Shown: positions 9,669-64,000 of the stretch, in pieces
How positions within the stretch are numbered: position 1 is the first letter of the stretch
Layout of the letters: each line of letters begins with the position of its first letter
From: Escherichia coli O157:H7 str. 2011EL-2287
GTDB taxonomy: Bacteria > Pseudomonadota > Gammaproteobacteria > Enterobacterales > Enterobacteriaceae
Assembly: GCA_000614405.2 (NCBI GenBank)
Contig: GCA_000614405.2_3612.1
DNA: 64,000 bases
Direction: 5' to 3' (one strand)
The notes under the pieces: generated by a model
Databases searched by the model: none
What the model saw: the letters and a program-made list of their open reading frames with translations, nothing else
What the model was told of the DNA's origin: nothing
Translations under genes and position numbers: made by a program

Positions 9669-10085
9669 ATGACATTAGAAGATATCATTGTTAAACCTGA
9701 GAACTATGACCAATACAACCTGTCAACTCAATCTGTAGACCTCGGATGCGCCACAGTCAGTGCATGGCTGGTTAACGGAAAAGAGCTTGACGAGTGCCTG
9801 GAAGCACACATGTCGGTGAATAAATTTCTTGATGAAAATACCCACTGGATAGAGGGTGCAGGAGTATATGCTTCATGGTTGGAGAGTATGGGATTCGACT
9901 ACCAATCTGAAGAGGGGTGGTGGAGCTATTTAGCTGTCTGCCCAGAGACGCTGCAATGCTTCATGAAATATTCTGAAGATTTGGAGTACCGGGCGGTGGT
10001 TGATAGTGCCATTGCCCGTTATAGCCGTAAACCTTTTTCCCACGACATTAAAACTGTGGAAGAATTTGTTGAAGTTTTCTGTTGA
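9669..10085 (+). CDS. hypothetical protein
   Basis: ORF with SD AAGGAGA upstream. Confidence 0.5.
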   Translation: MTLEDIIVKPENYDQYNLSTQSVDLGCATVSAWLVNGKELDECLEAHMSVNKFLDENTHWIEGAGVYASWLESMGFDYQSEEGWWSYLAVCPETLQCFMKYSEDLEYRAVVDSAIARYSRKPFSHDIKTVEEFVEVFC

Positions 10086-10181
10086 CACAGGTTGAAAGGT
10101 GTGCAATTATAACTTCATATAACGGGAGGACGCGATGAACGAAGAAAACTGGGATGTATAACTAACAGGAGGCCACTGCCC

Positions 10182-10379
10182 ATGATTTATCGAATCCGTG
10201 TAAGAGAAGACGCACCAGGCTGTTACTTTGACTGGCGTGGGTGGTGGTTTCTCCACCCAATGGATGGACTCACAGATAGAATGCTGGATGCTGCCCTTTA
10301 CACAGATACCGACATAGAATATAATCTCTATCTGAAGGACGGTATAGATAACGGCCTGTTTGAAGCAATTCCTGTGTAA
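10182..10379 (+). CDS. hypothetical protein
   Basis: ORF with SD AGGAGG upstream. Confidence 0.45.
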   Translation: MIYRIRVREDAPGCYFDWRGWWFLHPMDGLTDRMLDAALYTDTDIEYNLYLKDGIDNGLFEAIPV

Positions 10380-10447
10380 GAGACTGTGATAACTATGTTT
10401 TATGATCTTCCTGTAGCGCCACCACCTGTTGAACCCGGAGAACTAAG

Positions 10448-10873
10448 ATGATCTATGAAATGCCAAAACTGATTCGTGACGATGCCCAAAACGCTCACAC
10501 CATTATTATGGGCAAACGCATGGATATTATTTGTCATAAAGATTTCTGGGAAGGAAGTTACTTCACAGAGTATTTTGGTAAACTGGACAATGGTCTGCTG
10601 ATCCAGTTCTACACCGATGCGGAAAACAATATCTGCTGGGAGTTCGAAACTGAAGATATCCATAAACTTTTCACCTTCCTCGGTATTAAGGTTGAGGCCA
10701 AGTTTGAAGAAGGTGAGTGCGACGATTGTGGATTCTACGAGGTAACAGATTTCTACCTCCCGAGCGGTGAGAACCTTTACTATGAAAGCCACTTCGGTAA
10801 CTCCAATATGCCACAGTGCTGGACTGAGTTTTTTGAAATTGCGGAAGAGGAGCTGGCATACCGTGATTATTGA
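10448..10873 (+). CDS. hypothetical protein
   Basis: ORF with SD GGAGA upstream. Confidence 0.5.
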   Translation: MIYEMPKLIRDDAQNAHTIIMGKRMDIICHKDFWEGSYFTEYFGKLDNGLLIQFYTDAENNICWEFETEDIHKLFTFLGIKVEAKFEEGECDDCGFYEVTDFYLPSGENLYYESHFGNSNMPQCWTEFFEIAEEELAYRDY

Positions 10874-11321
10874 TACTGTAGGGGGAGATCTAATCTCTCT
10901 TTTCAAGAAAGGGTCGGGCCACATGATCCACGGTTGTAACTGCTTTCACACAATGGGTGCAGGCATAGCGAAAGACATTGCCCGTGAGTTCCCTCAAGCA
11001 CTGGCAGCCGACAAAGAGACTGCTTATGGTAATCTAGACAAGCTGGGTATGTTTTCTTGTTGGGAGCATTTTGCCAAGAACAGGGCCGTATATGGAATCA
11101 ACCTGTATACCCAGTTCTACCCAGGGCCCAATGCTGAATACTTCTCAATCATGAAAGGTTTTGAGCGAGTCAACGAGGTATTCAAAGGTGTGTCATTGCC
11201 GTTCTACATTCCTAAAATCGGATGCGGTATTGGCGGTCTAAAGTGGGAACATGTAGAAGATGTAATTAATCTTGCAACCACAGATATTGATGTGGTTGTA
11301 GTAGAGTACAAAAAGTGTTGA
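10863..11321 (+). CDS. macro domain protein (ADP-ribose binding/processing), probable GTG start
   Basis: IDTVGGDLISLF...HMIHGCNCFHTMGAGIAKDIAREFP matches macro-domain core; GAGGAG SD 9 nt before GTG 10863. Confidence 0.6.
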   Translation: MIIDTVGGDLISLFKKGSGHMIHGCNCFHTMGAGIAKDIAREFPQALAADKETAYGNLDKLGMFSCWEHFAKNRAVYGINLYTQFYPGPNAEYFSIMKGFERVNEVFKGVSLPFYIPKIGCGIGGLKWEHVEDVINLATTDIDVVVVEYKKC

Positions 11322-11572
11322 CGACCATCTTCTGAGGTGATATAGTCTCCACAACAACTAAGAGAGGAGAGCACTGTGGAGACTAAAATCTTAATTCTTG
11401 CTGTGGTAGATACAACCGAAGGAGCTATATTCGAATCTGCAGGAGGGTATTTCTACCTACCATACGGAAAAAGAACTTCCGAGCCAAGTAAAGATTCAAT
11501 CCGCAAAGTGTTCCCGTGTGCTTTCTGGCTGGAGATTTTGGTATAAGATTGCAGAGGATTTGGGAGAGAATT

Positions 11573-11767
11573 ATGAGAAACAAGAAAGAGCTTTACTCTG
11601 GTGAGTGGATCAACGATCAACAGGTGGGAGAGGTAACCTGCTTCCGATGTTTTACCAGGTACAATCTTAAAACTGCACCAAAAAGTGTTCCAAAGACTGA
11701 TGGTTATTACATAAAAGAACCTTATTGCCCAAAATGTAAATGCCGATTATACTGGAGTAACCTGTAA
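11573..11767 (+). CDS. small zinc-ribbon protein
   Basis: ORF with SD GGGAGAG; two CxxC pairs (CFRC, CPKCKC). Confidence 0.5.
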   Translation: MRNKKELYSGEWINDQQVGEVTCFRCFTRYNLKTAPKSVPKTDGYYIKEPYCPKCKCRLYWSNL

Positions 11768-11830
11768 AAGATTGACATCTGAAAACTGCAGTGTATAATA
11801 TATGCATAAACTAACAGAGAGTGATGTATT

Positions 11831-12022
11831 ATGGTAATTTTTAACCGGGATGGTATCATAGTTAGACAGCACCCGTTCCTTGAATACTATCAAATTGAGC
11901 AATGGTGCTACGGGGATTGCAGTCACTCCTATGGGCAAAGTTGGGGATATCGTACAGTTTTTGAATCCACAGACCTTGACAAAGTAAGACAGAAAGTTTT
12001 AGAACTTATTAACAACAAGTGA
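11831..12022 (+). CDS. hypothetical protein
   Basis: ORF with SD GAGAG upstream. Confidence 0.4.
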   Translation: MVIFNRDGIIVRQHPFLEYYQIEQWCYGDCSHSYGQSWGYRTVFESTDLDKVRQKVLELINNK

Positions 12023-12029
12023 GTATGAT

Positions 12030-12362
12030 ATGGTAACATTAGAAAGACGTAAAGCTATCGCCGCCACACTGGCAGACATCTTTTGGGAGTGCAATTTAAA
12101 AGATACTAGATATTGTGGCGCATCTGTAGATGCATTGTTCCCACGGCCTACTATTGTTGCAATGGGCAACCTGCTCGATGTGGTATATGGAGCATGGGAC
12201 AAGGAAGGTGGATTCTATATCTGGCAACCTGACTACGGGACTTGGAAAGAGGTTAGTGGTTCTTCGGACTTCACTCCTGCAGTGGCTAAAATGGATGGCT
12301 GGAAAATCTATGTCGGTAACGACATGGAACTGAAAGGCGAAATTGTTTACTGGTTACCTTAA
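12030..12362 (+). CDS. hypothetical protein
   Basis: ORF. Confidence 0.5.
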   Translation: MVTLERRKAIAATLADIFWECNLKDTRYCGASVDALFPRPTIVAMGNLLDVVYGAWDKEGGFYIWQPDYGTWKEVSGSSDFTPAVAKMDGWKIYVGNDMELKGEIVYWLP

Positions 12363-12383
12363 GAAAGTCCAGGAGATAAAGTT

Positions 12384-12629
12384 ATGAACAAAGGGTGGAC
12401 ATTTGTAGACGGCGTTAAAAACATGCCTCTAGGAAAGTATATTGTAGCCATGGCAGATGAGAATGGCAATGTGGATTTCGGAGCTTGCGAGGTTGTTCTT
12501 GCAGGATCTGGTAACTATGTGGACAAAACCGGGATAATTAACGGTCAGTTCTACTTTGATCACAACCCTGTTGTAGCGTATATGGCTATGCCAGAGTTCA
12601 AGTTCCCAAAGGAGGGTGCAGATGTTTAA
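12384..12629 (+). CDS. hypothetical protein
   Basis: ORF with SD AGGAGA upstream. Confidence 0.5.
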   Translation: MNKGWTFVDGVKNMPLGKYIVAMADENGNVDFGACEVVLAGSGNYVDKTGIINGQFYFDHNPVVAYMAMPEFKFPKEGADV

Positions 12630-12819
12630 GCTTAAATCTGCATGGAACATCGCTGTGGGGGACGAGATCCGTATCCCAGGTGGAAAGACCATTATGAAGA
12701 TATCTCGTATCGAGTACGAAGGTGATCGTGTATTTCATATCTTTGCAGAGGATGGTCGAGAAATTTATATACAGGCAGGCTCTCACATCTATATTCGTAA
12801 GAAAGGGGACGACAAATGA
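12616..12819 (+). CDS. hypothetical protein
   Basis: ORF with SD AAGGAGGG upstream. Confidence 0.5.
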   Translation: MQMFKLKSAWNIAVGDEIRIPGGKTIMKISRIEYEGDRVFHIFAEDGREIYIQAGSHIYIRKKGDDK

Positions 12820-13145
12820 CAGAGATCATCATTTCAACTGCAGGGTATGTGTTCCTGACAATCATTGCACTGACCATTCTGGTGGTGGTATATGGAATTG
12901 TTATTCTCCCTATTCTTGAGACAATTAGTTTGTGTCGGTGTTGGAGAAAGGCTTACGGTCCACAGCCGTGGAAGGACTGGCCCCACCTGGTGCACATAGC
13001 GTTCTCTTATGCTTATGATCACGCCAGCAGTGCATGCATAACCGGGTATCACGCCCACAACTGGAGCTGGGAAGGGTTGAGGAAATGGAATGTTACAAAG
13101 ACCATACCTCTGCGCATGTACAAACCTAAAAACAAAGACAGCTGA
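12816..13145 (+). CDS. hypothetical membrane protein
   Basis: ORF; hydrophobic N-terminal segment LTIIALTILVVVYGIVILPIL. Confidence 0.5.
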   Translation: MTEIIISTAGYVFLTIIALTILVVVYGIVILPILETISLCRCWRKAYGPQPWKDWPHLVHIAFSYAYDHASSACITGYHAHNWSWEGLRKWNVTKTIPLRMYKPKNKDS

Positions 13146-13740
13146 TACTTGAAAATTCCTGGCATATCAAGTATAAGGGGGATTTCTAAAATGGATTTCC
13201 TCCTTTTGATATTTCACCGGGCCGGATATTTTAAAATTCTTAGAAAATCAGAAAATGGATCGAAAACTAAAATGGATTTTTCAGAGTAGGCGCGACAAGC
13301 TGAATAACTCATCCTATCGTTTGCACCATATTCCAGACCACCATTATAGATTTCCCGCACATGCTTACATCTCGCTACTAGAACTTCCTCCACTTACCCT
13401 TGACCTTTTATAGCAATAATCCAACCACTATCTTGAAGTTGCGGTGCAGCTTTCCAGGTACTCGATCTGTTTTTCGTTTCAAAGATTGAATTTTCTGAAA
13501 ATTTTTCTCGATAAATTTCTCAGTACTCGATCTGTTTTTCGTTTTCTGAATCGGATTTTCTGGAAATCGCTCCGGCTCTTGGCCTAAACTTTTTGGGGAC
13601 GAAATCGATTTTTCGTTTTCAGAAATGGATTTTTAAAATTTCTATATGGGAATATTTTAGTGGATACTATTTTATAGGAAATTGTTACGGAGGGTAATTA
13701 GCGTGCTAATTAAATTTATTAAATGCGAGGAGTTCTCATT
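13146..13740. repeat. ORF-free AT-rich region with iteron-like direct repeats (candidate replication origin or control region)
   Basis: AAAATGGAT(T) motif at least 4 times; 22-bp direct repeat GTACTCGATCTGTTTTTCGTTT twice (about 13459 and 13523); GATTTTCTGGAAA-type repeats; no ORF with SD. Confidence 0.5.
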
Positions 13741-13748
13741 TAGAATTT

Positions 13749-13766
13749 TGAATGATAATCATTCTC
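13749..13766 (+). promoter_or_regulatory. Fur-box-like operator 1
   Basis: TGAATGATAATCATTCTC, about 15/19 match to GATAATGATAATCATTATC consensus. Confidence 0.4.
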
Positions 13767-13865
13767 GTTTGCAGAATAACGGGCAGGCCCGGTGATTGTC
13801 TCCCGGCCCCTACTGCCCCGGCTTGTTATTATAGTAACACACAGGACAAAGAAAGCAAGAAGTTT

Positions 13866-13902
13866 TTGCATAAATTTTTAGACGATAATGATAATCGTTC
13901 TC
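13866..13902 (+). promoter_or_regulatory. sigma70-like promoter (TTGCAT-N18-GATAAT) overlapped by Fur-box-like operator 2
   Basis: GATAATGATAATCGTTCTC is 17/19 to Fur consensus and overlaps the -10 hexamer, the classic Fur-repressed architecture. Confidence 0.45.
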
Positions 13903-14164
13903 ATTTCATGCAGCGCCCATCCCCGGTGGTTGTCTCCCCCGTCACCGGTGCCTGCCGTCCTTTCGATAGGTATATTTTGCCACCTGGCGGGGCCGCTGTC
14001 AACACTTTTCAAAAAAAAAAATTTCTAACCTGATGCGCTGACCGCTGCAACCTGGCGGGGCCAGCCTGGCAGGGCCTAACTGACCAGGTAGGAGAGAATG
14101 AAGGCTTGCAAACCTGGTGGGCCTATGCTATAGGATAGGTAACAATTGAAGAGGAGGTACAAAA

Positions 14165-14341
14165 ATGGAAGGTAATATGATCCCCCTGGAAAATGTAGCT
14201 ATTAATGACGCTGAGGCTATCGCCCTGGTTGAAAAGGCTATGGCGGGAGCGTTGGAACATAAAGAAGAGTACGAAAAAATGATGGTTAACCTGGCAGGGG
14301 CGGCGGCTGGAGAATTCTACCCAAAAAATAATTTTAACTAA
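14165..14341 (+). CDS. hypothetical small protein (58 aa)
   Basis: ORF below track cutoff; strong SD GAAGAGGAGG 7 nt before ATG. Confidence 0.5.
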   Translation: MEGNMIPLENVAINDAEAIALVEKAMAGALEHKEEYEKMMVNLAGAAAGEFYPKNNFN

Positions 14342-14344
14342 TGG

Positions 14345-14373
14345 TTGACAGCTCGGACAGTTCTTGTTATTCT
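14345..14373 (+). promoter_or_regulatory. sigma70-like promoter
   Basis: TTGACA-N17-TATTCT upstream of gene at 14429. Confidence 0.5.
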
Positions 14374-14428
14374 TATCCTCGCAAGGTGAACAACACCACA
14401 CCAATTAACAGAGAGGATAAAAAAAATC

Positions 14429-14626
14429 ATGAACGCCTACGGAATTAAAGTACGTCGCAACACTCGCCAGGTGGTCACCAATCAAGTGATTTGCCGGGTG
14501 GATGTAACCATCAACAACGGGCAAGGCCTTTATAAATTTCGTCGCGGTCATAGCTATACCCTGCAACAGCTTAACCGTTGCGCCCTGACAAAAGGTCAGA
14601 TCAACCACTGGTTTAATAAAAAATAA
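14429..14626 (+). CDS. hypothetical protein
   Basis: ORF with SD GAGAGGA and own promoter. Confidence 0.55.
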   Translation: MNAYGIKVRRNTRQVVTNQVICRVDVTINNGQGLYKFRRGHSYTLQQLNRCALTKGQINHWFNKK

Positions 14627-14628
14627 TG

Positions 14629-14657
14629 TTGACATATGGTCTGACACAAAATACACT
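14629..14657 (+). promoter_or_regulatory. sigma70-like promoter
   Basis: TTGACA-N17-TACACT upstream of gene at 14690. Confidence 0.5.
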
Positions 14658-14689
14658 GAAATCGCAAAAGACACTAAGAGGATAAAATC

Positions 14690-15088
14690 ATGAAAACCAC
14701 TACCTTTAATTTTGATAATGCGGACTTTTCTTTTTCTGATGTCAAGAACTGCCGCCGTGATCGTGGATTTTACAAGGCTTATAATCTGGTGGGCCTGGAC
14801 GATGACAATAATTTGCACGAAGTAGCTGAGATCCGGTATTATGCCGCCGCCAGTGGTAACACTCACTACTGCGTGTTTTGGATTCACGACAACAAGAACA
14901 ATAAGTACGGTTATACTGGCGGCAAGGCGAGCGGTCACGGTTACGATAAAGCTAACGCAGCACTTGAGAGTGCATTAAATGCTATGGGGATCACTGCCGA
15001 CGGCTGGATCTACGAAGAAGAGTTTTTGTCGGCACTTGCTGACCACCTGGGCTATAAAAAGCACATTGTGACATGCGCCCACGAATAA
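14690..15088 (+). CDS. hypothetical protein
   Basis: ORF with SD AAGAGGA. Confidence 0.55.
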   Translation: MKTTTFNFDNADFSFSDVKNCRRDRGFYKAYNLVGLDDDNNLHEVAEIRYYAAASGNTHYCVFWIHDNKNNKYGYTGGKASGHGYDKANAALESALNAMGITADGWIYEEEFLSALADHLGYKKHIVTCAHE

Positions 15089-15094
15089 AAATCA

Positions 15095-15151
15095 TTGACA
15101 CGCTGCAAAATTTAAGTAAACTAGACACAAAAGGCGGGAATGTTTCCCGCC
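15095..15151 (+). promoter_or_regulatory. sigma70-like promoter followed by leader stem-loop GGCGGGAATGTTTCCCGCC
   Basis: TTGACA-N16-TAAACT; 7-bp GC stem in leader; not followed by a U tract. Confidence 0.5.
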
Positions 15152-15170
15152 AGCACAAAGGAAAAAGATC

Positions 15171-15575
15171 ATGAATAAGAACGTACGCCGCATCATGAAC
15201 GAACTGGCAAACGATGAAAAAATTATTGACATGCACTTAGTGAACATTTGCCGCCGTTGTGTAACCTATAACAACCGCGCCGCAAAAGCGCGTGAGATGA
15301 ACGCAAAAGGCACCTTAAAGCCCTTCCAGGTGGTGGTAAAGGCCATTAAAGATGTAGCTAATACGGCAAACCAGGTACAGGGGAACACCAACGAGAGTAC
15401 CAATATTGATCCGGCTTACATCATGAAACGGATCCGGACCTGCAAGAACAAAGAGCAAGTGTATAACGTCATAGACTGGTTGGATTCCATGGGCGACGTG
15501 GTTTATAATAGGTTTTCTGCAGCCATTGAGATCCAGCTAGACAGGTTGGACGGGAAAGTACTAAAAACTTATTGA
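15171..15575 (+). CDS. hypothetical protein
   Basis: ORF with SD AAAGGAAAAAG. Confidence 0.55.
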   Translation: MNKNVRRIMNELANDEKIIDMHLVNICRRCVTYNNRAAKAREMNAKGTLKPFQVVVKAIKDVANTANQVQGNTNESTNIDPAYIMKRIRTCKNKEQVYNVIDWLDSMGDVVYNRFSAAIEIQLDRLDGKVLKTY

Positions 15576-15577
15576 GT

Positions 15578-15622
15578 TTATTTTTAGATGGCCTTGACTC
15601 CAGGGCCATCGATAAAGTAAAC
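15578..15622 (+). repeat. about 45-bp intergenic repeat element, copy 1 (TTATTTTTAGATGGCCTTGACTCCAGGGCCATCxATAAAGTAAA)
   Basis: Near-identical copies at about 16197, 19942 and a divergent one at 16533; each directly follows a stop codon; contains imperfect hairpin and TTGACT hexamer. Confidence 0.6.
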
Positions 15623-15655
15623 TAATCTCAGTTAAGCGAAAAAGGGGGCTTTAAG

Positions 15656-15775
15656 ATGGGCACTACACGCCAATACACAAAGGTAACTATTATCGTCTGC
15701 GTTGTCGGTTACATCCTGGCGCAAATGTTAATGAGTAGCGCTAACAGTTTTGCAAAATTTTTCTTAAATTTTTAA
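15656..15775 (+). CDS. hypothetical small hydrophobic peptide (39 aa)
   Basis: ORF below cutoff; SD AAAGGGGG; hydrophobic core VTIIVCVVGYILAQML. Confidence 0.35.
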   Translation: MGTTRQYTKVTIIVCVVGYILAQMLMSSANSFAKFFLNF

Positions 15776-15854
15776 TTGACAAGCTAACTTAGATCGGTAT
15801 ACTTAAACCCGTAAACGGGAAAACTTCCCAGAACACACAAAAGGAGAAAACACC

Positions 15855-16196
15855 ATGACCACTATGACCGCCGCAGAAAAAGCTATTCAGGTTGCCGCAC
15901 TGAAAAAACAGATCGCAGACCTTGAGAACAAGATCGATACCTTTGAAATCGACGAGGACAAGTACGACGAAAACTATGATGAATGGTTAGACGAGATCTA
16001 CGGAGAAATCATGATCGGAAACATTTCTTTTCTTCCGTCGCGTATCCTCAAGGAGCTAGATCCTATCGCTTACCGCTGCGGATTTAGCGACTACATCGAC
16101 AGCCTGGATATTGAGGACGATGAAGAATACCAGGAATTACAGACAGAGTTAGAAGAAGCAAAAGAAGAGCTTGCGGAGCTGGAAGAAAACGAGTAA
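15855..16196 (+). CDS. hypothetical acidic protein
   Basis: ORF with SD AAGGAGAAAA and upstream TTGACA promoter plus hairpin. Confidence 0.55.
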   Translation: MTTMTAAEKAIQVAALKKQIADLENKIDTFEIDEDKYDENYDEWLDEIYGEIMIGNISFLPSRILKELDPIAYRCGFSDYIDSLDIEDDEEYQELQTELEEAKEELAELEENE

Positions 16197-16244
16197 GATT
16201 ATTTTTAGATGGCCTTGACTCCAGGGCCATCAATAAAGTAAACT
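16197..16244 (+). repeat. about 45-bp intergenic repeat element, copy 2
   Basis: See copy 1. Confidence 0.6.
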
Positions 16245-16285
16245 TTATACTGTTAACACTGAACTAATGCATAGGAGTTAAAACC

Positions 16286-16531
16286 ATGGCAGCACTAATC
16301 ACCAAATATTATGCCCCTACCAACACCAAAAGCGCCCGTATCATGGTAAAAGGCTTCGGACGTAAAAAGGTTTACACCTGGGATTATGCCTTAGACACGG
16401 AAGACAACTACACCAACGCGATGACAGATTTTATTAATGAGCTGAACACGCGGATCTTGACAAATTATAAAATTACCGATATTGCCTATATAGGGGAAGG
16501 CGGGATCTGTTTTGTCGGTATCGTCAAATAA
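16286..16531 (+). CDS. hypothetical protein
   Basis: ORF with SD AGGAG. Confidence 0.55.
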   Translation: MAALITKYYAPTNTKSARIMVKGFGRKKVYTWDYALDTEDNYTNAMTDFINELNTRILTNYKITDIAYIGEGGICFVGIVK

Positions 16532-16532
16532 G

Positions 16533-16580
16533 CTGTTTTTTCGGTGGTCCTGGTAGCAGGGCCATCTATAAAGATAGTTT
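16533..16580 (+). repeat. intergenic repeat element, divergent copy 3
   Basis: GGTGGTCCTGGTAGCAGGGCCATCTATAAAGATAG resembles copies 1, 2 and 4. Confidence 0.4.
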
Positions 16581-32261: not shown

Positions 32262-32579
32262 TCATTCTCCAAAGTCAATCTTTACTTTGCCTTTCCCCTT
32301 ACCTTTCTTTCCACCACATTTAGCCAGCTGACGTGCTGCAACATCTACCATACGGTCAGTTGCCTCGTAAGCATCACTGCCTTTAGCTTTGGCAATAACT
32401 TCTTTTCCAGAATTGTCAAAAATGAACGCCATAACTTCCTGGTGATCATTTTCAACTTTTACACTCACACGTGCATAGTTGGCAGAGGGGTGCAAACGCT
32501 CCAGCTTAGACATTTTGTGGGAAATGAAAGACACCATACCTTCAGTGATTTCTACGTTGCCAGTGATTTCAATTTGCAT
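32262..32579 (-). CDS. hpf: ribosome hibernation promoting factor homolog (HPF/YfiA/RaiA family)
   Basis: MQIEITGNVEITEGMVSFISHKMSKLERL...VSVKVE...DAYEATDRMVDVAARQLAK aligns along its length with E. coli HPF (MQLNITGNNVEITEALREFV...KLARQLTK); SD AAGGAAC. Confidence 0.75.
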   Translation of the reverse strand: MQIEITGNVEITEGMVSFISHKMSKLERLHPSANYARVSVKVENDHQEVMAFIFDNSGKEVIAKAKGSDAYEATDRMVDVAARQLAKCGGKKGKGKGKVKIDFGE

Positions 32580-39077: not shown

Positions 39078-40127
39078 TTAAACTTCTTCGACAATTCCTG
39101 CACCCAGGATTTTTTCATTGAGCTCTTTTGCTGTTTTAATAATATTATCTACCAGACGCTTGCGAGTCTTATCTTTCACCTTAACCTCTTCACCGCCGTT
39201 CAGAGTAGTCTTCAATTGAGACAGAATATCCTGAAGTTCAACGACAGAGAATCTCTGCAGATCTTCTGAAGTAATCTCACCCAGGGCAATTCGGACGGTC
39301 TCGCCACTTTCCATCTGCAGATTCAGGAACACAGTGTGAACATCACCTTTCGAACCACCCGCTTTTGCAGATTCAACAGCATGAACTAACTCATCTAAAG
39401 ATGTGCACTGGTGAATCTCCGGAAGACCTGCTTCACCTAACACGCCTTCTTCATCACCTTTTGCCAGAAGCTTTTTCGGTTTTTGTCCGTTCTGGATGCG
39501 TTGTATGTTGCCTTCATCCAGAATAATAGCTCCAGTGCGTGCTGCCAGCTCTTCTCCGTCCAACCACACTTCGCCACCAGCTGTGATGGATGCGATCTCA
39601 TCTTCTGTCAGCACCCCACCGTAGTATTTTTCGATTAAGCGTTCGAAACGTTTTTTCCAGTAGCTGACCTGAGTATTCATGTTCACACCGTTACCATAAG
39701 TGCCACCTTGGTAGTAGTGGAACATAAACTCTGTGTCCGGAGCCACAGTGCGTTCTTTGCAACCCAGCCATAAGATTGTTCCCGCAGAGCAGCACATCCC
39801 TTCAGCATGTGCAACAACGCTTGCCTGAGACTCGCGGAATGCCTGCAGATAAGCCATTGCAATGTGCACGCAACCCCCAGGACTATTGATGATCACCCGA
39901 ATGCTTTCTTCCGGCTGAGCCATACGGATCGTCTGCAGACGAGACATATGATCTTGTAAGTCTTCCAAATCGTCGATATAAAGAACGTGGTCAACAACTG
40001 GTGTTGGGTAGCTGTATGTTTCCATAATACCACCCGGCATACCGAACATTTTATTACTCATAGGTTCGAAACCGTTCTGTTTTTCTTTCATGCCGTGTAC
40101 CATGGTGCTACGAGGTGTTAAATTCAT
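39078..40127 (-). CDS. ClpP-family serine protease homolog with about 150-aa C-terminal extension
   Basis: INSPGGCVH motif and ClpP-like Ser (CCSAGT) context; 349 aa. Confidence 0.65.
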   Translation of the reverse strand: MNLTPRSTMVHGMKEKQNGFEPMSNKMFGMPGGIMETYSYPTPVVDHVLYIDDLEDLQDHMSRLQTIRMAQPEESIRVIINSPGGCVHIAMAYLQAFRESQASVVAHAEGMCCSAGTILWLGCKERTVAPDTEFMFHYYQGGTYGNGVNMNTQVSYWKKRFERLIEKYYGGVLTEDEIASITAGGEVWLDGEELAARTGAIILDEGNIQRIQNGQKPKKLLAKGDEEGVLGEAGLPEIHQCTSLDELVHAVESAKAGGSKGDVHTVFLNLQMESGETVRIALGEITSEDLQRFSVVELQDILSQLKTTLNGGEEVKVKDKTRKRLVDNIIKTAKELNEKILGAGIVEEV

Positions 40128-40187
40128 GAGAAATCCTTAATATTGGAAGTTGAAAGCTATTTATTTAAACCTGATTCACATTTACCT

Positions 40188-40499
40188 TTATTTAGCAATC
40201 ACTATAGAGTACTTACGATTGTCAGAAGCATCGCAGCTCAATGATTGCCAGTCTACCACATACCACGTATCATTGTCAACAATCACTTTATCGCCTGTTC
40301 TGTAGCAGGTGCTGCTTTCAATAATCCGAGACTCGATAAAGAATCTGTGTCGGCGCTCACGTAGCAACGCTAAGTTGATTATATTGCCACCACTGTCCTT
40401 GATCCATACATTCTTGGATCCTTTATATGCCAGAATTGTCTCGCCGTTATAGACAAACAGGCAGTATATTTTATTTAGTTTCTCTTGTATTGTGGCCAT
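40188..40499 (-). CDS. hypothetical protein
   Basis: ORF. Confidence 0.5.
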   Translation of the reverse strand: MATIQEKLNKIYCLFVYNGETILAYKGSKNVWIKDSGGNIINLALLRERRHRFFIESRIIESSTCYRTGDKVIVDNDTWYVVDWQSLSCDASDNRKYSIVIAK

Positions 40500-40602
40500 A
40501 CTATCTCCTTCTCCTTGTCTTGTCCGATAATAATATCTAAAGCTTACCTGTTTGTCAACAACTGTTTTAGATATTTAAGGGTGGAATAACCACCCTTCTG
40601 TA

Positions 40603-41391
40603 TTACTCGGAAACAGGGGTCCAAATATGATTTGCACGATCCTCTATAAGATTGAGAGCAATCTGACGACCCAACCCGGAACGAACGACATCGTCTGGAC
40701 TATCAAAGCTGATCATTCCAACCTCGGGATCTGGATGACGAGTAAAGAAATCCGTCACCCATGCAAGGCCAGATTTACCAGGGATGTCACGTTGACTATT
40801 ATCGCCCATAATTACAAGGGTGGCCTGATCAGAGATCCTTGTAATAATTGACAACATTTCTTCAGGGTTAGTTTGCTGTGCCTCGTCAATCAGGACAAAG
40901 CATCGCTCATCGAAACTACGACCACGAATGCTTTCAACTTCACAAATCTCGATACGGCTGTTCTGACCATCTCCCAGCATTGCGGCAAAAGCACCTTTGC
41001 CAACACGACGACAAATAGTGTCCATCATGCTTCGAAGATAGGGCCACAGTTTTTGCATTGCATTCCCTGGTTTAAATCCTGAAGTCTTTCCTGTCTGAAC
41101 GTAAGGACGTGCAACAATGATCTTATCAATCTCGTTCTTACGCAGAAGATCACCTGCATATGCAGATGCCATGAATGTCTTACCGGATCCAAACACACCG
41201 TTTACAATAATAATCTTACGTGACCCTAGATAATCAAGATACTTTTGCTGCTTCTTATTCATTGGTCGGAGAGCTGGAGCAGTGTGCTCTCTTTCGTCAG
41301 CAAATTTCTCAGCAGCCTTACGCAGGCGATCAGATTTGCGAGCCTCTCTAGCTTCATCACGCATGCGTTTTGTTTCTTTAGCTCGACCCAT
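40603..41391 (-). CDS. phoH: PhoH-like ATPase
   Basis: Walker A GVFGSGKTFMA; Walker B-like VLIDEAQ; 262 aa. Confidence 0.75.
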   Translation of the reverse strand: MGRAKETKRMRDEAREARKSDRLRKAAEKFADEREHTAPALRPMNKKQQKYLDYLGSRKIIIVNGVFGSGKTFMASAYAGDLLRKNEIDKIIVARPYVQTGKTSGFKPGNAMQKLWPYLRSMMDTICRRVGKGAFAAMLGDGQNSRIEICEVESIRGRSFDERCFVLIDEAQQTNPEEMLSIITRISDQATLVIMGDNSQRDIPGKSGLAWVTDFFTRHPDPEVGMISFDSPDDVVRSGLGRQIALNLIEDRANHIWTPVSE

Positions 41392-41429
41392 GTTGGGACT
41401 CCTTTCAGATTGAGATGTGCCAAGTACTT

Positions 41430-41780
41430 TTACTGCAACAGTTTTTCAATAGCCGCTTCCATGCTGCTTGCAACAGCCTGAACTCGGATATTCATCTCTT
41501 CTTGGTGGATCAGCTCCTTAAGCTCTTTAATGGTAAATTCTTTAGAGAAACCTTCCACCATAATCTTGTGTAAGGCTTCTTGCGTGTCTACTTGCAAGAA
41601 CTTTTCCAGTTTGTTGGCAGAGGCTTCTAAATCAGCCCGAATGCGAGGGTCATCTGTGCGATTCAGCATTAGGCGTAAGCCATCAAGATTAGTAGAAATA
41701 GCGTCTGCATGTTGAGTAACTAACCGTGGCAAAATGAGATCTACAAACTTATTAGCCAAATCGATACGTTCTTGTGTCAC
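41430..41780 (-). CDS. hypothetical protein
   Basis: ORF. Confidence 0.5.
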   Translation of the reverse strand: MTQERIDLANKFVDLILPRLVTQHADAISTNLDGLRLMLNRTDDPRIRADLEASANKLEKFLQVDTQEALHKIMVEGFSKEFTIKELKELIHQEEMNIRVQAVASSMEAAIEKLLQ

Positions 41781-41954
41781 TGTTGCACCCCCTCTTCATC
41801 CTCATGATGTTTCTTTTCACGCTTGTGTTTTTTCTTGAGCTCAAGCGCAATTTCTTTTTTGTACGCCTTCTTCAAGGCTTTTTTAGCCATTTGGCACCTC
41901 CTCTGCTTTCATTTTACGATAATTATACCTATCTAAACAAAGCTTTGTCAACAG

Positions 41955-42428
41955 CTAGTCTACCTGGACCCAACCGCCTGATACTTTTTTAAACATTCTT
42001 TGGTTATCACTGCCTCGGAACGGTTTCTTGGTTGGTAAATCTTTTACATACTTACCGTCAATGATGATATCAGCCAGTTTAAGAACATCACTAGAGATAT
42101 GGTCAAATGTGAACCCAGTATATACAAGAATAGTTTTCTTGTCACCAAATTTTTCCTTAATTTTCTCCATCAGGCTAATAATATCTGGCTCATTATAGTA
42201 TGCTAAGGGTTCTCCACCCAGCAGAGAGATACCGCACACAGACGGGTTATCTAAATCTGACAAGATTTTTTGCAAGTCTTCTTCAGTAAACTCTCTTCCC
42301 TTATCTTTTGACCAAAATGCCTGATTAAAGCAACCAGGGCAAGCGTGTGGGCACCCAGATACCCACAAGGCAGTTCTAATACCTGGCCCTTCGGTGTAAG
42401 ATATTTCTGTGTATCCGGCAATATTCAT
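41955..42428 (-). CDS. nrdG: anaerobic ribonucleotide reductase activating protein (radical SAM)
   Basis: CPHACPGC radical-SAM cysteine motif; 157 aa; adjacent to nrdD. Confidence 0.8.
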   Translation of the reverse strand: MNIAGYTEISYTEGPGIRTALWVSGCPHACPGCFNQAFWSKDKGREFTEEDLQKILSDLDNPSVCGISLLGGEPLAYYNEPDIISLMEKIKEKFGDKKTILVYTGFTFDHISSDVLKLADIIIDGKYVKDLPTKKPFRGSDNQRMFKKVSGGWVQVD

Positions 42429-60471: not shown

Positions 60472-60740
60472 TACTCGGCCTCTTCCTTAAAAATGTTAAA
60501 CATCTCTTCTTTACTCATTACCAGCCAGTCCCCCATAAAATCAACAAGCCAATCACCCTGGTACAAGACTAGGTTACCAAACGGCTCTACAAGCTCACAC
60601 ATGCGACGAAGATCTCTGGTCCGAACAGGTGACGATGTAAACACACCTGTATCAATCCACCGTTGCAGATCAGATACTGATGAAGAGCTTCCGTCAAACT
60701 GGTGTGCTTCTACAGGTTTAGCAAGATTAAATAATGGCAT
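60471..60740 (-). CDS. hypothetical protein
   Basis: ORF. Confidence 0.5.
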   Translation of the reverse strand: MPLFNLAKPVEAHQFDGSSSSVSDLQRWIDTGVFTSSPVRTRDLRRMCELVEPFGNLVLYQGDWLVDFMGDWLVMSKEEMFNIFKEEAE

Positions 60741-61035
60741 TGCAGTCCTCCTTATCTAATAGGTCTTTTATCGGGTAAACAAGCAGGTGTGGATCGTAAT
60801 AATTTATAGTTTTATTCTGCCACACTATGAACTTAATTACAACTAAATTTACCACATCTTTATCTCCATGTAGTCCAACACACAGATTTGTCCATATTTT
60901 GTGGTTGAATACTTTGCTGTCGATGTAGATTTTAGTGTCAAACTTATCCTCTATCCTGCCTATGAGTTTAACCAACTCTTTCATCTGATCCCCAAACACA
61001 GCATCGTTTTCAAGATCTCTAGAGTGCTTGTACAT
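60727..61035 (-). CDS. hypothetical protein
   Basis: ORF. Confidence 0.5.
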   Translation of the reverse strand: MYKHSRDLENDAVFGDQMKELVKLIGRIEDKFDTKIYIDSKVFNHKIWTNLCVGLHGDKDVVNLVVIKFIVWQNKTINYYDPHLLVYPIKDLLDKEDCNAII

Positions 61036-61097
61036 AACTAACTACCTCACTGCATACTTTCCATAATAAGTAAAGCCGGGTAATCCCGGCTATGTTG

Positions 61098-61811
61098 TTA
61101 AATATACTCTGTTACATCCTTGAAGCTCGAAGGCTTCATGATCTTACCTTTACTGTCAAGGAATATGATAACTTTATTACCGTTGTAGAATTCTTCCTTG
61201 GCAACAAAACCTTCATATCGACCATCAAAGCGTCGTTCAAGATCTTTAATCTCCAACTCGATTAGTTGTTCAGCAGGCATATCTGCACTGGCACCGTGTG
61301 AATACCGTAGATGGTTGACCCGTGCAAACTTGCTGTCATTCGATTTGAGAACCTTACGCATCATCCCGCACACATCGCCGCGAAGCTGGAACAGTAAAGC
61401 TGTTGACAACTCCGCTAAGCGGTAAGCTGACGCTCTTTGCTTAGATGTGTTTTTAGCAGCGATCAGTGTATCATAGAACTCACCGATCTTGAACTTAAGA
61501 CCTCGTGGATTATCAAACAGGTTTGACCACTTTTCGTGATTGTCATTAACAAGATAAGCGGCATAACTTGTGACAACGTGAAGATCGCAGGCCTCTTTTA
61601 GCAGGTGATCTCCACCATCACCTTTCTCCAGCTCTTCCAAAACTTCATTGAACTCTTCCTCAATGAAGCTAAGCTGTAATTCGAACGGTGTGTATGATTT
61701 TTTCACTTTAGCTGCCACACGGTTCCAGTTTTCCACCCAGTTGGCAGACCAAAGGTAGTTTTCAGGTTGGGACAGTTTTTCCAGGTTGTCAATTAATTTG
61801 GTATTCAGCAT
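61098..61811 (-). CDS. hypothetical protein (possible MazG-like NTP pyrophosphohydrolase)
   Basis: Glu-rich SFIEEEFNEVLEELEKGD segment weakly resembling MazG/HisE metal-binding helix. Confidence 0.4.
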   Translation of the reverse strand: MLNTKLIDNLEKLSQPENYLWSANWVENWNRVAAKVKKSYTPFELQLSFIEEEFNEVLEELEKGDGGDHLLKEACDLHVVTSYAAYLVNDNHEKWSNLFDNPRGLKFKIGEFYDTLIAAKNTSKQRASAYRLAELSTALLFQLRGDVCGMMRKVLKSNDSKFARVNHLRYSHGASADMPAEQLIELEIKDLERRFDGRYEGFVAKEEFYNGNKVIIFLDSKGKIMKPSSFKDVTEYI

Positions 61812-61824
61812 TAAAGGTCTCCTT

Positions 61825-62586
61825 TTAAAGTTCCATAAAGTTTTCTACGGTCTCAATGAATGTTTTATCAGAGAAAGCGTCAACCGCCCCGTTAAACCAA
61901 ACTGGGATGCCGCGATCCTCATACTGGTAAATATCACTACGTGAAATGCCATTCTCCTCTAGATGCTGTGAGTCGTATTTGTTAACGATCAGCAGTTTGG
62001 TTCCCTTATTGCAGGCAGGGAATAGTTCCCAGTTAAAATTGATAACTGTGTTGGAACAACCTACAAGGATAACCATATCATTGCTAGTGAGAGAAGTCAA
62101 CAGGTCATACATGTCTGTATACTTCGGAGCTACTTCTCCGAAGAACACCACATTAGGCTTAACCCAGATATACTTTCCTGCATCTACCTCAGAGTATCCA
62201 ATGTCCCTAATGACGTTACTTCCTTCATCGTCCTCATAGACTATTTCTGGCAAATACCCGTGGACATGTAGAATATCTTCATGTTTTACACCAGCACGCT
62301 CCAGCAAATCATCTACATTGGTGGTAAGATTGATCACACGGCCAGGCCAGCGGGAATACCACTCAGCGATCCGGAGATGCGCAAGGTTAGGATCAACACT
62401 GCCCAGAGCTACACGGCGTGCATTGTAAAAGTCATGCACCTTATAGTAGTTCTTGGCAAAGGTGTGGATGTTGCACACCTCATCGATGCTGAAATTCTCC
62501 CACATTGCAGTGCTACCAGATCGGAAAGTGGGAATACCAGATTCAGCGCTCAAACCAGCACCGGAGATAATAATCAGTCGTCGCAT
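61825..62586 (-). CDS. Sir2 (sirtuin) family NAD-dependent protein
   Basis: GAGLSAESGIPTFRS, TTNVDDL and HG motifs of the sirtuin Rossmann fold; no obvious zinc-ribbon Cys pairs. Confidence 0.75.
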   Translation of the reverse strand: MRRLIIISGAGLSAESGIPTFRSGSTAMWENFSIDEVCNIHTFAKNYYKVHDFYNARRVALGSVDPNLAHLRIAEWYSRWPGRVINLTTNVDDLLERAGVKHEDILHVHGYLPEIVYEDDEGSNVIRDIGYSEVDAGKYIWVKPNVVFFGEVAPKYTDMYDLLTSLTSNDMVILVGCSNTVINFNWELFPACNKGTKLLIVNKYDSQHLEENGISRSDIYQYEDRGIPVWFNGAVDAFSDKTFIETVENFMEL

Positions 62587-62594
62587 AAGTGTCC

Positions 62595-62975
62595 TCAGTA
62601 GATGTTTTGTTTAATCTCTATTCCAAACTTTTTAAACGAGTCAGCTGCAAGCATGAATTTACGAGCCGCTGATGGATTAGAAGTATGCACGAAAATCTTC
62701 ACGTTGTCAACTACAGGAGGCTTACCAAATACAAATTTTTCCTCTAACATGCAGAAACAGTCGTACCCTTCGAAGACTTCTCCTAAATCGCTGTCAAAAT
62801 GCCACTCAGAAACGCGCCTGTAGAGCTTTCTATTATCGTTAATAAAATCCATGAACTCAGAAGAGTTCTTCAGCCAAAGAGCATCTTGGATTCCGTAATT
62901 TGACGGATCTCTCAAGTCATCCAGCCACACAATCAACTTCTTCATTGCATATAGTCCTCGTTGTGAAAATAGCAA
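62595..62975 (-). CDS. hypothetical protein
   Basis: ORF. Confidence 0.5.
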   Translation of the reverse strand: MLFSQRGLYAMKKLIVWLDDLRDPSNYGIQDALWLKNSSEFMDFINDNRKLYRRVSEWHFDSDLGEVFEGYDCFCMLEEKFVFGKPPVVDNVKIFVHTSNPSAARKFMLAADSFKKFGIEIKQNIY

Positions 62976-63877
62976 TCAAGTATCTCACGGCGTTCCTGCT
63001 CCAGGAGGCAGTTCCACACATCTTCTGTGTAATTGCTACGAATGAAGTTTACCATTCCGTAAAACTCTTCGTCAATACGTTTAAAGATATCATCATCCCA
63101 AATCTTCCAAGCTTTACCCCTCATTACGGCCTTCCGTGCCAAATAGTATGGAGACTTGATCTTCAGCTGCAGGTCATAAGGGTAGTAAGGCTTACGGATC
63201 ATATACCCTTCGCCCATTGTTTCTGCAGCTAATTCTTTTGCATAGCTGAACGGGATTTCACGCACAGTGTGAGGACGTTTTGCACCAAGGTATTTGGCAA
63301 TCCCATCTAAAGCTGCTTCTGGTAGCATTATTCCAGAATCATTATATCTGCAACCTATCAAATATGCGCCATGGTCTTCTTGAACAATATGCGGATCTGA
63401 AGGGTGACAAATTTCAAACATGAATGTCATGTTTTCATTGCCCATAACCTTCTTGATAAGATCTAAATTACCACATTGCTCTTGGATGGTTTCCTTTGCA
63501 AGGTTACAATATGGAGAATCAAGAGACCCGGTTGTTGAGAACAATAGGTCACCTTTATGAGATGATACCACACCAAGGAATCCGTTCTTTTTCTCTACCG
63601 CCGTCACAAGCTTATTGTCAGGCAGGTTGGTGGAGTTTTCTCCCAAGTTAAACACTTTTGTGAAGGGCCATGCCACAACATTCCCTTCATTACCTACAAC
63701 AATGCCTCGGCACTCCAGCAAACGAGGAGACAAATGCCATAAATTGTTGTAAAATACTTTTCTGGCATATTTATAGATCTTTAATCCAAGATCTGGGTAA
63801 TATCTGCTGGTTACAAGACCTTTGTCAACTAGGTCGTCTGCATTAAAATACTTCATCATGCGTTCCTCATTTGTCAT
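62942..63877 (-). CDS. RNA ligase-like nucleotidyltransferase (Rnl family)
   Basis: Motif I EKKNGF, motif IV EGYMIRK, motif V LKIKSPYY. Confidence 0.55.
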   Translation of the reverse strand: MTNEERMMKYFNADDLVDKGLVTSRYYPDLGLKIYKYARKVFYNNLWHLSPRLLECRGIVVGNEGNVVAWPFTKVFNLGENSTNLPDNKLVTAVEKKNGFLGVVSSHKGDLLFSTTGSLDSPYCNLAKETIQEQCGNLDLIKKVMGNENMTFMFEICHPSDPHIVQEDHGAYLIGCRYNDSGIMLPEAALDGIAKYLGAKRPHTVREIPFSYAKELAAETMGEGYMIRKPYYPYDLQLKIKSPYYLARKAVMRGKAWKIWDDDIFKRIDEEFYGMVNFIRSNYTEDVWNCLLEQERREILDCYFHNEDYMQ

Positions 63878-63920
63878 TTTGTCAGTCTATCCTGCCACAC
63901 AAATAACCTGGTGTCAACAC

Positions 63921-63949
63921 TTGAAATTAACAAAACAGTTGGGTATACT
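63921..63949 (+). promoter_or_regulatory. sigma70-like promoter (divergent from minus-strand operon)
   Basis: TTGAAA-N17-TATACT upstream of ATG 63978. Confidence 0.4.
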
Positions 63950-63977
63950 ATCGTTGAAATTAAAACGGAGGATTACT

Positions 63978-64000
63978 ATGTCTAAAATGCTATATATCGT
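63978..64000 (+). CDS. hypothetical protein, 5' fragment (continues beyond window)
   Basis: ATG preceded by SD ACGGAGGA; truncated by window end. Confidence 0.4.

Follow-up and report, generated by a model that had tools for sequence, protein, structure and literature searches.

Zinc-ribbon-less sirtuin of an rV5-like coliphage lies in a candidate RNA-repair operon and is unlinked to the macro-domain gene of the same replicon

The closest described systems are the phage sirtuin neighbourhoods surveyed by Iyer, Burroughs, Anantharaman and Aravind (Viruses 2022; PMC9503650, section 3.7.3). Three neighbourhood types were distinguished, with Escherichia phage V5 and Proteus phage Mydo as the prototypes of type 2; the sirtuin was predicted to remove RNA 2'-phosphates in an NAD+-dependent, Tpt1/KptA-like manner, and the authors remarked that an adjacent macro-domain gene is absent. 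The cREC domain and its link to NAD+ had been introduced in the same group's 2021 jumbo-phage paper (PMC7824862). We analyzed a stretch of 64,000 nucleotides (hereafter, the window) from contig GCA_000614405.2_3612.1 of the Escherichia coli O157:H7 str. 2011EL-2287 assembly, which contains a Sir2-family gene at 61825..62586 on the minus strand and a macro-domain gene at 10863..11321 on the plus strand. The original prediction was that these two genes form a module based on NAD+ and ADP-ribose. The genomic context of this Sir2 is already known as a computational prediction, and its pairing with the macro gene, the sole new element, was not supported. What we add are per-lineage counts of neighbouring genes, the linkage to NAMPT and NMNAT, the retained Y-x-x-R pair, the zinc-less cellular relatives and a quantified independence of the macro gene.

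Escherichia phage 241Ecol014PP matched positions 60500-64000 with 98.4% identity, and at 90% identity or more there were matches in 121 phage records; the 64-kb window belongs to an rV5-like coliphage (Vequintavirus). Related phages in GenBank already have annotations for both genes, and the sirtuin gene is named Sir2 or NAD-dependent deacetylase in most of the 121 records. On the minus strand, Sir2 is the third of four closely packed genes in the order Rnl1 RNA ligase, cREC, Sir2 and MazG-like pyrophosphohydrolase, with a 4-nt overlap between Rnl1 and cREC, an 8-nt gap between the cREC stop and the beginning of Sir2, and a 13-nt gap between Sir2 and the MazG-like gene. The first gene (62942..63877, minus strand) encodes an Rnl1-type, T4 RnlA-like RNA ligase, as indicated by Pfam RNA_lig_T4_1 (54.7 bits, cut-off 28.3), TIGR02308 T4 RnlA (E=9e-10), PHROG 562 (E=2e-65) and the annotation "RNA ligase" in OR062943.1. 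The second (62595..62945, minus strand) encodes a cREC protein, i.e., a cyclic-phosphate-processing receiver-like domain (Pfam cREC_REC PF20274, 51.6 bits, cut-off 27; PHROG 1479); its boundaries follow OR062943.1, where the annotated ATG accounts for the 4-nt overlap, and the mechanical open reading frame reaches a TTG at 62975. The last gene (61098..61811, minus strand) was assigned to the MazG-like nucleotide pyrophosphohydrolases by PHROG 671 (E=5e-22), by its annotation in OR062943.1 and RefSeq and by the EEEFNEVLEELE motif in its translation. This assignment is weaker than those of the other operon genes, as the protein had no Pfam or PDB sequence match; the PDB sequence search with Rnl1 also returned no match. 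Directly 3' of the MazG-like stop, a scan for terminator-like structures found a GC-rich hairpin (61074..61091, minus strand; AGCCGGG-ATTA-CCCGGCT, 7 bp of which 6 are G-C, with a poor T tail), which is probably the end of the Rnl1-cREC-Sir2-MazG transcription unit.

Upstream of Rnl1, a divergent intergenic region of 100 nt (63878..63977) contains consensus matches to a promoter (TTGAAA-17-TATACT at 63921-63949 on the plus strand) and to a ribosome-binding site (GGAGGA). It is followed on the plus strand by the 5' end of a P-loop kinase gene (AAA_33, polynucleotide-kinase-like; 63978..64000), which is cut by the window end and was recognized by identity with the 241Ecol014PP locus (L001) from position 12480 onward. 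In that 98%-identical phage, outside the window, a calcineurin-like metallophosphoesterase gene comes after the kinase gene; Pfam matched the two L001 proteins to AAA_33 (E=1e-10) and Metallophos (E=4e-6), respectively. A ligase, a 5'-kinase and a 2',3'-phosphoesterase constitute the classical RNA healing-and-sealing set. In 241Ecol014PP, a tRNA cluster lies 4 kb from this repair module. Within the cluster, at 16985-17083 of L001, ARAGORN reported a tRNA-like gene of 99 nt whose anticodon has four bases (atcc) and which is absent from the GenBank annotation; possible explanations are a false positive, a pseudo-tRNA and a tRNA of the frameshift-suppressor-like kind.

The Sir2 protein is a single domain of 253 aa. 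The sirtuin signatures from which it had first been recognized were confirmed: GAGLSAESGIPTFRS occupies residues 9-23, TTNVDDL residues 88-94 and HG residues 109-110, and the protein matched Pfam SIR2 (PF02146) with 94 bits (cut-off 24; E=1.4e-26) over the whole profile (positions 1-178 of 180) and PHROG 2162 "Sir2" with E=1e-108. It has three cysteines in all (38, 177 and 192). None of them lies in the approximately 30 aa that separate HG from KPNVVFFGE, a stretch that contains the zinc cysteines in E. coli CobB and in the canonical sirtuin of phage Patelgo; the CxxC...CxxC pattern of a zinc ribbon in the small domain is absent, in agreement with the original prediction. We aligned the clade in two sets, comprising 8 distant members and 45 closer homologues. 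The zinc-less state was common to all 8 distant members, and the conserved columns of the 45-sequence alignment contained no cysteine pair in the zinc-ribbon segment. Because no clade member has cysteines in this segment, the alignments indicate that zinc loss is a clade-wide feature and not a defect of the window Sir2 alone. Homologues from epsilonproteobacteria keep the zinc cysteines and share the N- and C-terminal features of the phage clade; they look like evolutionary intermediates.

The residues expected of a working sirtuin were retained. Neither clade alignment showed any variation at G9-A10-G11, S16, F21-R22, N90 and H109-G110; in addition, G17 and D93 were invariant in one (A1) and D92 in the other (A2). 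The NAD+-binding and catalytic residues align to those of SIRT5 and CobB; the Q of the TQNID motif is replaced with T or A. Loss of the conserved His or Asn would have spoken for a dead enzyme; His109, Asn90/Asp92 and the GAG loop are intact, and the window Sir2 is probably active. The Y-x-x-R pair of class III sirtuins is also present, since Y54/R57 correspond to SIRT5 Y102/R105 in the alignment and are invariant in the 45 sequences.

These features bear on the possibility that Sir2 works as a conventional CobB-like enzyme that uses NAD+ to deacylate protein lysines (as a deacetylase, desuccinylase or delipoylase), which would reset the acylation of host or phage proteins, e.g., translation, nucleotide-metabolism or repair enzymes, while its operon position would reflect co-expression or regulation. 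We consider this somewhat unlikely. The closest solved relatives by sequence are SIRT5 and CobB (E~1e-20), both class III deacylases. Foldseek with the AlphaFold (AF2) model (pLDDT 89.8) returned CobB, SIRT5 and Sir2Af as the best PDB neighbours (TM 0.7-0.84; CobB alone, TM 0.73-0.84). The anionic-acyl-binding Y-x-x-R lies in a segment, FYNARR, that E. coli CobB has in identical form; the FGE loop is kept, as is the catalytic His of HG. However, the zinc module, which forms one wall of the peptide cleft, is replaced clade-wide. In addition, the NCBIfam models nearest to Sir2 are of CobB type, but the protein remained far below every CobB equivalog cut-off (NF040867, NF001753 and others; best score 121 vs 243 bits, the rest 54-101 vs 221-395). 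The classification by profile models thus placed it in the SIR2 family without assigning it to CobB; it is a phage-clade, zinc-ribbon-less derivative of the class III (CobB/SIRT5-like) sirtuins.

We compared the surroundings of Sir2 across 88 loci (8 from GenBank and 80 from IMG/VR, with 8-10 kb on either side), which formed 24 lineages when clustered at 70% identity. In distant lineages, Sir2 relatives of 40-60% identity lie beside RNA-end enzymes that are non-homologous but analogous. Mydovirus-like phages show the order phosphoesterase (MPE)..Rnl1-cREC-kinase-Sir2..MazG, with NAMPT 7 kb away. In T5-like phages, a "Swiss-army-knife RNA repair" HAD (HAD_SAK_2, PF18143) adjoins Sir2, a pair of DUF7415 genes follows downstream, and PhoH is found at a distance of 3 kb. 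The order in jumbo phages is NMNAT-NAMPT..2H-Sir2-Nudix-cREC-PIN-PhoH..MazG, and in two further lineages NAMPT stands directly next to Sir2. The three published neighbourhood types were thereby reproduced independently. Counted by lineage, the neighbours of Sir2 were MazG-like (9/24), NAMPT (9/24), PhoH (7/24), Rnl1/kinase/MPE (6/24), NMNAT (5/24), cREC (4/24), HAD_SAK (3/24), 2H (2/24) and macro (1/24). At least one RNA-end-healing marker was found near Sir2 in approximately 10 of the 24 lineages, and NAMPT and/or NMNAT within 10 kb in 9 of them.

Some of these loci showed further features. The T5-like phages and Sugarlandviruses (33 of the 88 loci) always have, after Sir2, a tandem gene pair with two DUF7415 repeats each, as at 9502-10332 in fp01 (L003) and 8969-9762 in Sealy (L005). 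Small open reading frames flanking Sir2 in T5-like, Schizotequatrovirus and phi92-like phages were considered as divergent cREC genes and set aside, as they gave no BLAST or Pfam match. Sir2 also lies with tRNA genes in two further lineages from IMG/VR: in one (L067), it is inside an 11-gene tRNA array (8535-16559); in the other (L086), a tRNA-Thr gene (10725-10798) follows Sir2 at ~20-150 nt.

The operon and its domain content, the analogous partners recurring in other lineages and the intact NAD+ chemistry of Sir2 are established. From gene context, we infer that the operon is an RNA (tRNA) healing-and-sealing module directed against host anticodon nucleases and other metal-independent RNases. 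We tentatively favour, at somewhat under even odds, the reading in which Sir2 acts in this module like Tpt1/KptA and removes 2'-phosphates from RNA at the expense of NAD+. The Tpt1 reaction is chemically parallel to the sirtuin cycle; both start with attack of an oxyanion on C1'', followed by attack of the ribose 2''-OH on the group that has been transferred. In the proposed pathway, which follows the prediction of Iyer et al. (2022), a nuclease would leave 2',3'-cyclic phosphate and 5'-OH ends, the cyclic phosphate would be opened by cREC or the phosphoesterase, the 5' end would be phosphorylated by the kinase and the break would be sealed by Rnl1. Sir2 would then remove the residual 2'-phosphate: the phosphate oxygen would attack C1'' of NAD+, nicotinamide would leave and the ribose 2''-OH would attack the phosphorus, yielding 2'-OH RNA and ADP-ribose-1'',2''-cyclic phosphate. 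The Y-x-x-R pair could hold the phosphate. The ADP-ribose by-product would be disposed of by cREC together with the MazG-like enzyme (Nudix in other phages), and nicotinamide would be recycled by NAMPT and NMNAT. The presence of NAMPT and NMNAT beside Sir2 in other lineages fits this proposal because Sir2 would consume NAD+ and release nicotinamide.

If Sir2 substituted for KptA, the two might be expected to avoid each other. KptA was found in approximately 95 phage records, whose overlap with the Sir2 records was at most 2-4, and in none of the listed jumbo Sir2 carriers. This near-disjoint distribution is compatible with substitution but statistically weak, as an overlap of approximately 2 records is expected under independence. 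One apparent adjacency of Sir2 and KptA was not reproduced with a second query.

Several observations weigh against the RNA-repair reading, beginning with this low power of the KptA comparison. Approximately half of the Sir2 lineages have no RNA-repair neighbour (phi92-like, L086 and L087; L069 has only NAMPT/NMNAT beside unrelated genes), as the deacylase alternative would allow, and no RNA ligase was found near Sir2 in the T5-like neighbourhoods examined. tRNA genes occurred near Sir2 in only 7 of 22 sampled loci, i.e., general tRNA proximity is minor evidence. Moreover, the window Sir2 retains the full motif set of a class III lysine deacylase, with FYNARR and the FGE loop among them, and its sequence demands no new substrate; the phosphoesterase of the module could strip 2'/3' phosphates without NAD+. 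The cellular relatives point the same way. A scan of cellular genomes returned mostly ordinary four-cysteine CobB-like proteins, and true zinc-less sirtuins of the TTNVDDL type (42-53% identity) in five marine gammaproteobacterial genomes (Marinobacterium, Haliea and Oceanospirillum; L093-L097, Sir2 at ~8001-8730). These, the closest zinc-less relatives from cells, are encoded on the chromosome among amino-acid dehydrogenase, transporter and oxidoreductase genes, as expected of a housekeeping deacylase, and no RNA-repair or prophage gene was found within 8 kb of them. Zinc loss had been considered as a marker of a new function, and zinc-less cellular homologues in such metabolic contexts weaken this idea. 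The literature searched yielded neither biochemical nor genetic tests of this Sir2 clade; therefore, the mechanism is drawn from gene context only. Against a deacylase that is simply co-expressed, however, stands the repeated, independent placing of Sir2 beside non-homologous RNA-end enzymes in approximately 10 of 24 lineages, which is hard to explain by co-expression alone.

The NAMPT and NMNAT genes also raise the possibility that Sir2 belongs to a counter-defence set built around NAD+ and nucleotide signals. With NAMPT/NMNAT (NARP2-type NAD+ reconstitution), Nudix, MazG and 2H/Acb1-like phosphodiesterases as partners, it would use up, transform or restore molecules derived from NAD+, e.g., immune signals or ADP-ribose derivatives (of Thoeris, CBASS or Sir2/TIR effectors), rather than act on RNA. 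We regard this as quite improbable. Linkage to NAMPT and/or NMNAT, which adjoin Sir2 in L069 and L080, would suit such a set, and Sir2-carrying phages often hold NAD+-restoring genes. Phage Bas30, which we take to be T5-like, is one phage in which such a pathway is on record: NARP3 was described there (PMC13464706), although that work concerns PnuC/NadR and not a phage Sir2. The flanks of Sir2 in jumbo phages point in the same direction. In CBB (L007, 7249-7695) and Munch (L008, 7513-7959), a 2H phosphoesterase gene lies just upstream of Sir2 and has the anti-CBASS protein Acb1 as its best Pfam match (E=1e-15 to 1e-16), and the other flank is a Nudix-cREC fusion. This 2H gene is 2 kb from the NARP2-type NAMPT and NMNAT pair, and an anti-defence island around the jumbo-phage Sir2 is possible. 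However, neither NAMPT nor NMNAT occurs in the 64 kb of the window, and the RefSeq relative has no such annotation in its first 50 kb. An NAD+ consumer would also oppose NAD+ reconstitution unless the two were tightly coupled, and to our knowledge no sirtuin degrades cyclic ADPR-type signals. Association with NAMPT is equally expected of any sirtuin reaction that releases nicotinamide. The original prediction had also pointed to host Sir2 effectors that act in anti-phage NAD+ depletion; the window Sir2 matched none of the 5,027 PADLOC defence-system models at E<=0.01.

The macro gene (10863..11321, plus strand) begins with GTG and encodes a stand-alone protein of 152 aa, the same length as a RefSeq entry annotated "phosphatase". 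It lies outside the Sir2 operon, in a rightward block after the DNA polymerase gene and among small hypothetical genes. The match to Pfam Macro was marginal and limited to the N-terminus (25.9 bits, cut-off 22); the DarG models of NCBIfam (E=9e-12) and PADLOC (E=1.5e-12) covered residues 13-149. The AlphaFold model (pLDDT 95.5) superposes on TARG1, Poa1p, DarG and SCO6735 (Foldseek E 1e-9 to 4e-7). The macro domain that had been read from the sequence was thus confirmed. Only positions 8-144 of the 338 in the DarG profile were matched, the DarG-type C-terminal domain that binds DarT is absent, and no darT is adjacent, the neighbours being small hypotheticals. A further neighbour, 200 nt downstream of the macro gene (11516-11767, plus strand), encodes a small protein in which a phage zinc-binding domain was recognized (PF23903, E=1e-21).

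Within the macro family, Asn26, the MGAG loop, Gln84 and the GxG (GCGIGG) loop are invariant, which suggests that the active site is intact and the protein probably active. Gln84, invariant in 54 family members, sits at the position of the catalytic lysine (TARG1 K84, DarG K80), whose role in these enzymes is documented (PMC13309987, PMC9411070); the protein thus does not have the lysine of the TARG1/DarG/AdfM type. Instead, N26 and Q84 form an Asn/Gln site of the SCO6735 type, and the N..IAQ motif is also found in the macro protein of phage Patelgo. The correspondence with SCO6735 is by motif, as the pairwise HMMER alignment to 5E3B was shifted at this point and there is no verified structural superposition of the site. 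An H-x-C-N-C motif is shared with Poa1p. The protein is a homologue of T4 Tk.4, which adjoins the vs gene in T4-like phages, and falls into the ALC1-like class.

The evolutionary histories of the two genes differ. Across vequintaviruses, the macro alleles form two groups, with 95-99% and 80-90% aa identity, whereas Sir2 is uniformly 92-99% identical. The macro protein shares 68% identity with the Tk.4 protein of JSE, a T4-like phage, and 39-46% with other T4-like Tk.4 proteins. Because the JSE protein is so much closer, lateral exchange of the macro gene between phage families is suggested. Both genes were also 92-99% identical to those of E. coli rV5-like phages in approximately 25 GenBank records (MG0656xx) named "Campylobacter phage" (C. 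jejuni), whose host labels look doubtful. The macro protein is a predicted SCO6735/DarG/Poa1p-like ADP-ribose hydrolase encoded by an independently inherited accessory gene. This is probably an independent counter-defence gene, whose product would most likely reverse host ADP-ribosylation, e.g., of the DarT type.

We then return to the proposed two-component module, in which Sir2 would ADP-ribosylate a target or make O-acyl-ADP-ribose and the macro protein would reverse the modification or consume the product, in the service of anti-defence or host modification. Both enzymes look active, as noted above, and the theme of NAD+ and ADP-ribose was to this extent reasonable; as a module of the two genes, it had no support from linkage or distribution. 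The genes do lie in the same replicon, as had been stated, but they are 50.5 kb apart, on opposite strands and in different transcription units, i.e., they do not form an adjacent, co-oriented pair. Macro was found within 10 kb of Sir2 at only one of the 88 loci, 5.5 kb away. Distribution was assessed by tblastn over 50,697 phage records, in which relatives of Sir2 occurred in 1,015 records and relatives of the macro protein in 2,736. A query in which the two were fused found 3,326 records and 3,704 places; therefore, approximately 370 records hold both genes, including Vequintavirinae, Mydovirus-like, phi92-like, Schizotequatrovirus and jumbo phages. Thus, ~36% of the approximately 1,015 Sir2 carriers hold the macro gene and ~64% do not, and approximately 2,360 records have macro alone, so that ~87% of macro carriers are without Sir2. 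Among the matches listed, all T5-like and Sugarlandvirus carriers had Sir2 alone, and the phages with macro only were T4-like, Felix O1-like, Pakpunavirus and Kuttervirus.

The presence of Sir2 and macro genes in the window is far beyond chance. Their co-occurrence in one large enterobacterial myovirus is unremarkable because the macro family spans so many phage records, and where several large-genome lineages have both genes, genome size and host are confounding factors. Hidden adjacency was sought in the 6-9 records with both genes in one place. These were Streptomyces phages with a canonical zinc-ribbon sirtuin (CxxC..CxxC, TQNIDDL type) that is 26% identical to the window Sir2, and the window clade was not involved. 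In phage Patelgo (L089, 3001-4157), and also in SparkleGoddess (MH590589) and Comrade (NC_048728), an SCO6735-like macro gene overlaps the stop of this sirtuin gene, and the pair follows immediately on a tRNA array and precedes rIIA/rIIB. That these phages put the same Q-type macro directly after a sirtuin speaks for a functional tie of the kind proposed, although the sirtuin is of the canonical type. Poa1p is an ADP-ribose-1''-phosphate phosphatase, and its membership in the same macro class, as a processor of this compound from the Tpt1 pathway, also favours some connection. However, the separate gene blocks, the independent evolution of the macro gene and the published survey, which records the absence of macro coupling for this Sir2 clade (PMC9503650), argue in the other direction. 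Pairing of Sir2 with macro is not supported by linkage or distribution, and we consider the module very unlikely. A link could survive only if the macro protein acted in trans like Poa1p; at most, it would assist in this manner on ADP-ribose-1''-phosphate.

Other genes of the window were located away from both subjects. On the minus strand, 39078-42428 contains genes for a ClpP-like protease (39078-40127), PhoH (40603-41391; Pfam 161 bits) and an NrdG-like radical-SAM activase (41955-42428). Here, 20 kb separate PhoH from Sir2, although the two are often neighbours in other lineages. A ribosome hibernation factor homologue is encoded at 32262-32579 on the minus strand (Pfam Ribosomal_S30AE, E=2e-12); the related phage APECc02 has two adjoining RaiA/sigma-54 modulation-like genes in its RefSeq annotation.

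Approximately 1,000 of the phages sequenced carry the Sir2 clade; among them are T5-like, rV5-like, phi92-like and jumbo phages, which are used as models and in therapy collections. If removal of RNA 2'-phosphates is its function, sirtuin chemistry would reach nucleic acids and provide a new anti-nuclease route of counter-defence; if it is a deacylase, phages would rewrite the host acylome. In the boldest version, the zinc-less phage sirtuin would be a genuine RNA 2'-phosphotransferase. Vequintaviruses would then encode a full analogue of the fungal Trl1-Tpt1-Cpd1-Poa1p tRNA ligation pathway, assembled from unrelated folds: this sirtuin, the ligase Rnl1, the kinase, the cREC protein, the MazG-like enzyme and, in trans, the macro protein as a Poa1p-like enzyme for ADP-ribose-1''-phosphate. 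We consider this version unlikely; if true, the protein would be the first sirtuin to act on nucleic acids and also the first catalyst of RNA 2'-phosphotransfer that is not a member of the Tpt1 family.

Finally, we compared the locus with known systems. T4 Pnk and Rnl1 repair tRNA and thereby counter the PrrC anticodon nuclease, and T4 has no such Sir2. As in T4, an Rnl1-type ligase, a 5'-kinase and a 2',3'-phosphoesterase function are encoded together in the rV5-like phage; however, the kinase and phosphoesterase are separate proteins, the latter is of calcineurin type and not a HAD enzyme, and cREC, Sir2 and the MazG-like protein are additional. With Tpt1/KptA, the window Sir2 would share the proposed reaction and its products as well as a set comprising ligase, kinase and a cyclic phosphodiesterase analogue, but Tpt1/KptA has the ART fold whereas Sir2 has the Rossmann sirtuin fold; Sir2 is not a member of that family and the analogy is functional only. 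CobB and SIRT5 share with Sir2 the fold, the GAGxS, FR, N/D and HG motifs, the FGE loop and the Y-x-x-R pair. Sir2 differs from them in a cysteine-free beta module of ~30 aa in place of the zinc site, in TTNVDDL instead of TQNIDxL, in a C-terminal extension and in its location in a candidate RNA-repair operon. The defence Sir2 NADases (ThsA, DSR1/2, Sir2-HerA and SPARSA) belong to the same superfamily and use NAD+; in contrast, the window Sir2 is phage-encoded, has no PADLOC match, no fused sensor and no partner, and resembles class III deacylases rather than the divergent NADase type.

The macro protein shares its fold with SCO6735, TARG1, DarG and Poa1p, but has neither the DarT-binding domain of DarG nor an adjacent DarT; its H-x-C-N-C motif resembles that of Poa1p, and T4 Tk.4 is a homologue. 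By mutational evidence, SCO6735 depends on Asn27 and Gln85 to remove DarT-type thymidine-ADP-ribose from DNA (PMC9411070); Asn26 and Gln84 of the window protein appear to match these residues by motif. AdfM, a phage orphan macrodomain of the lysine type that counters DarTG2, was reported in 2026 (PMC13309987); the window protein is likewise an orphan phage macrodomain but lacks the catalytic lysine of AdfM, TARG1 and DarG. The SirTM-macro and Streptomyces-phage pairs are the only cases in which a sirtuin and the same Q-type macro are adjacent, whereas the window genes are unlinked. With the type 2 neighbourhood of Iyer et al., there is no essential difference: the window is a member of it, with the same gene set of sirtuin, T4-like RNA ligase, cREC, nucleotide kinase, MazG and calcineurin-like phosphoesterase, and with no adjacent macro gene.

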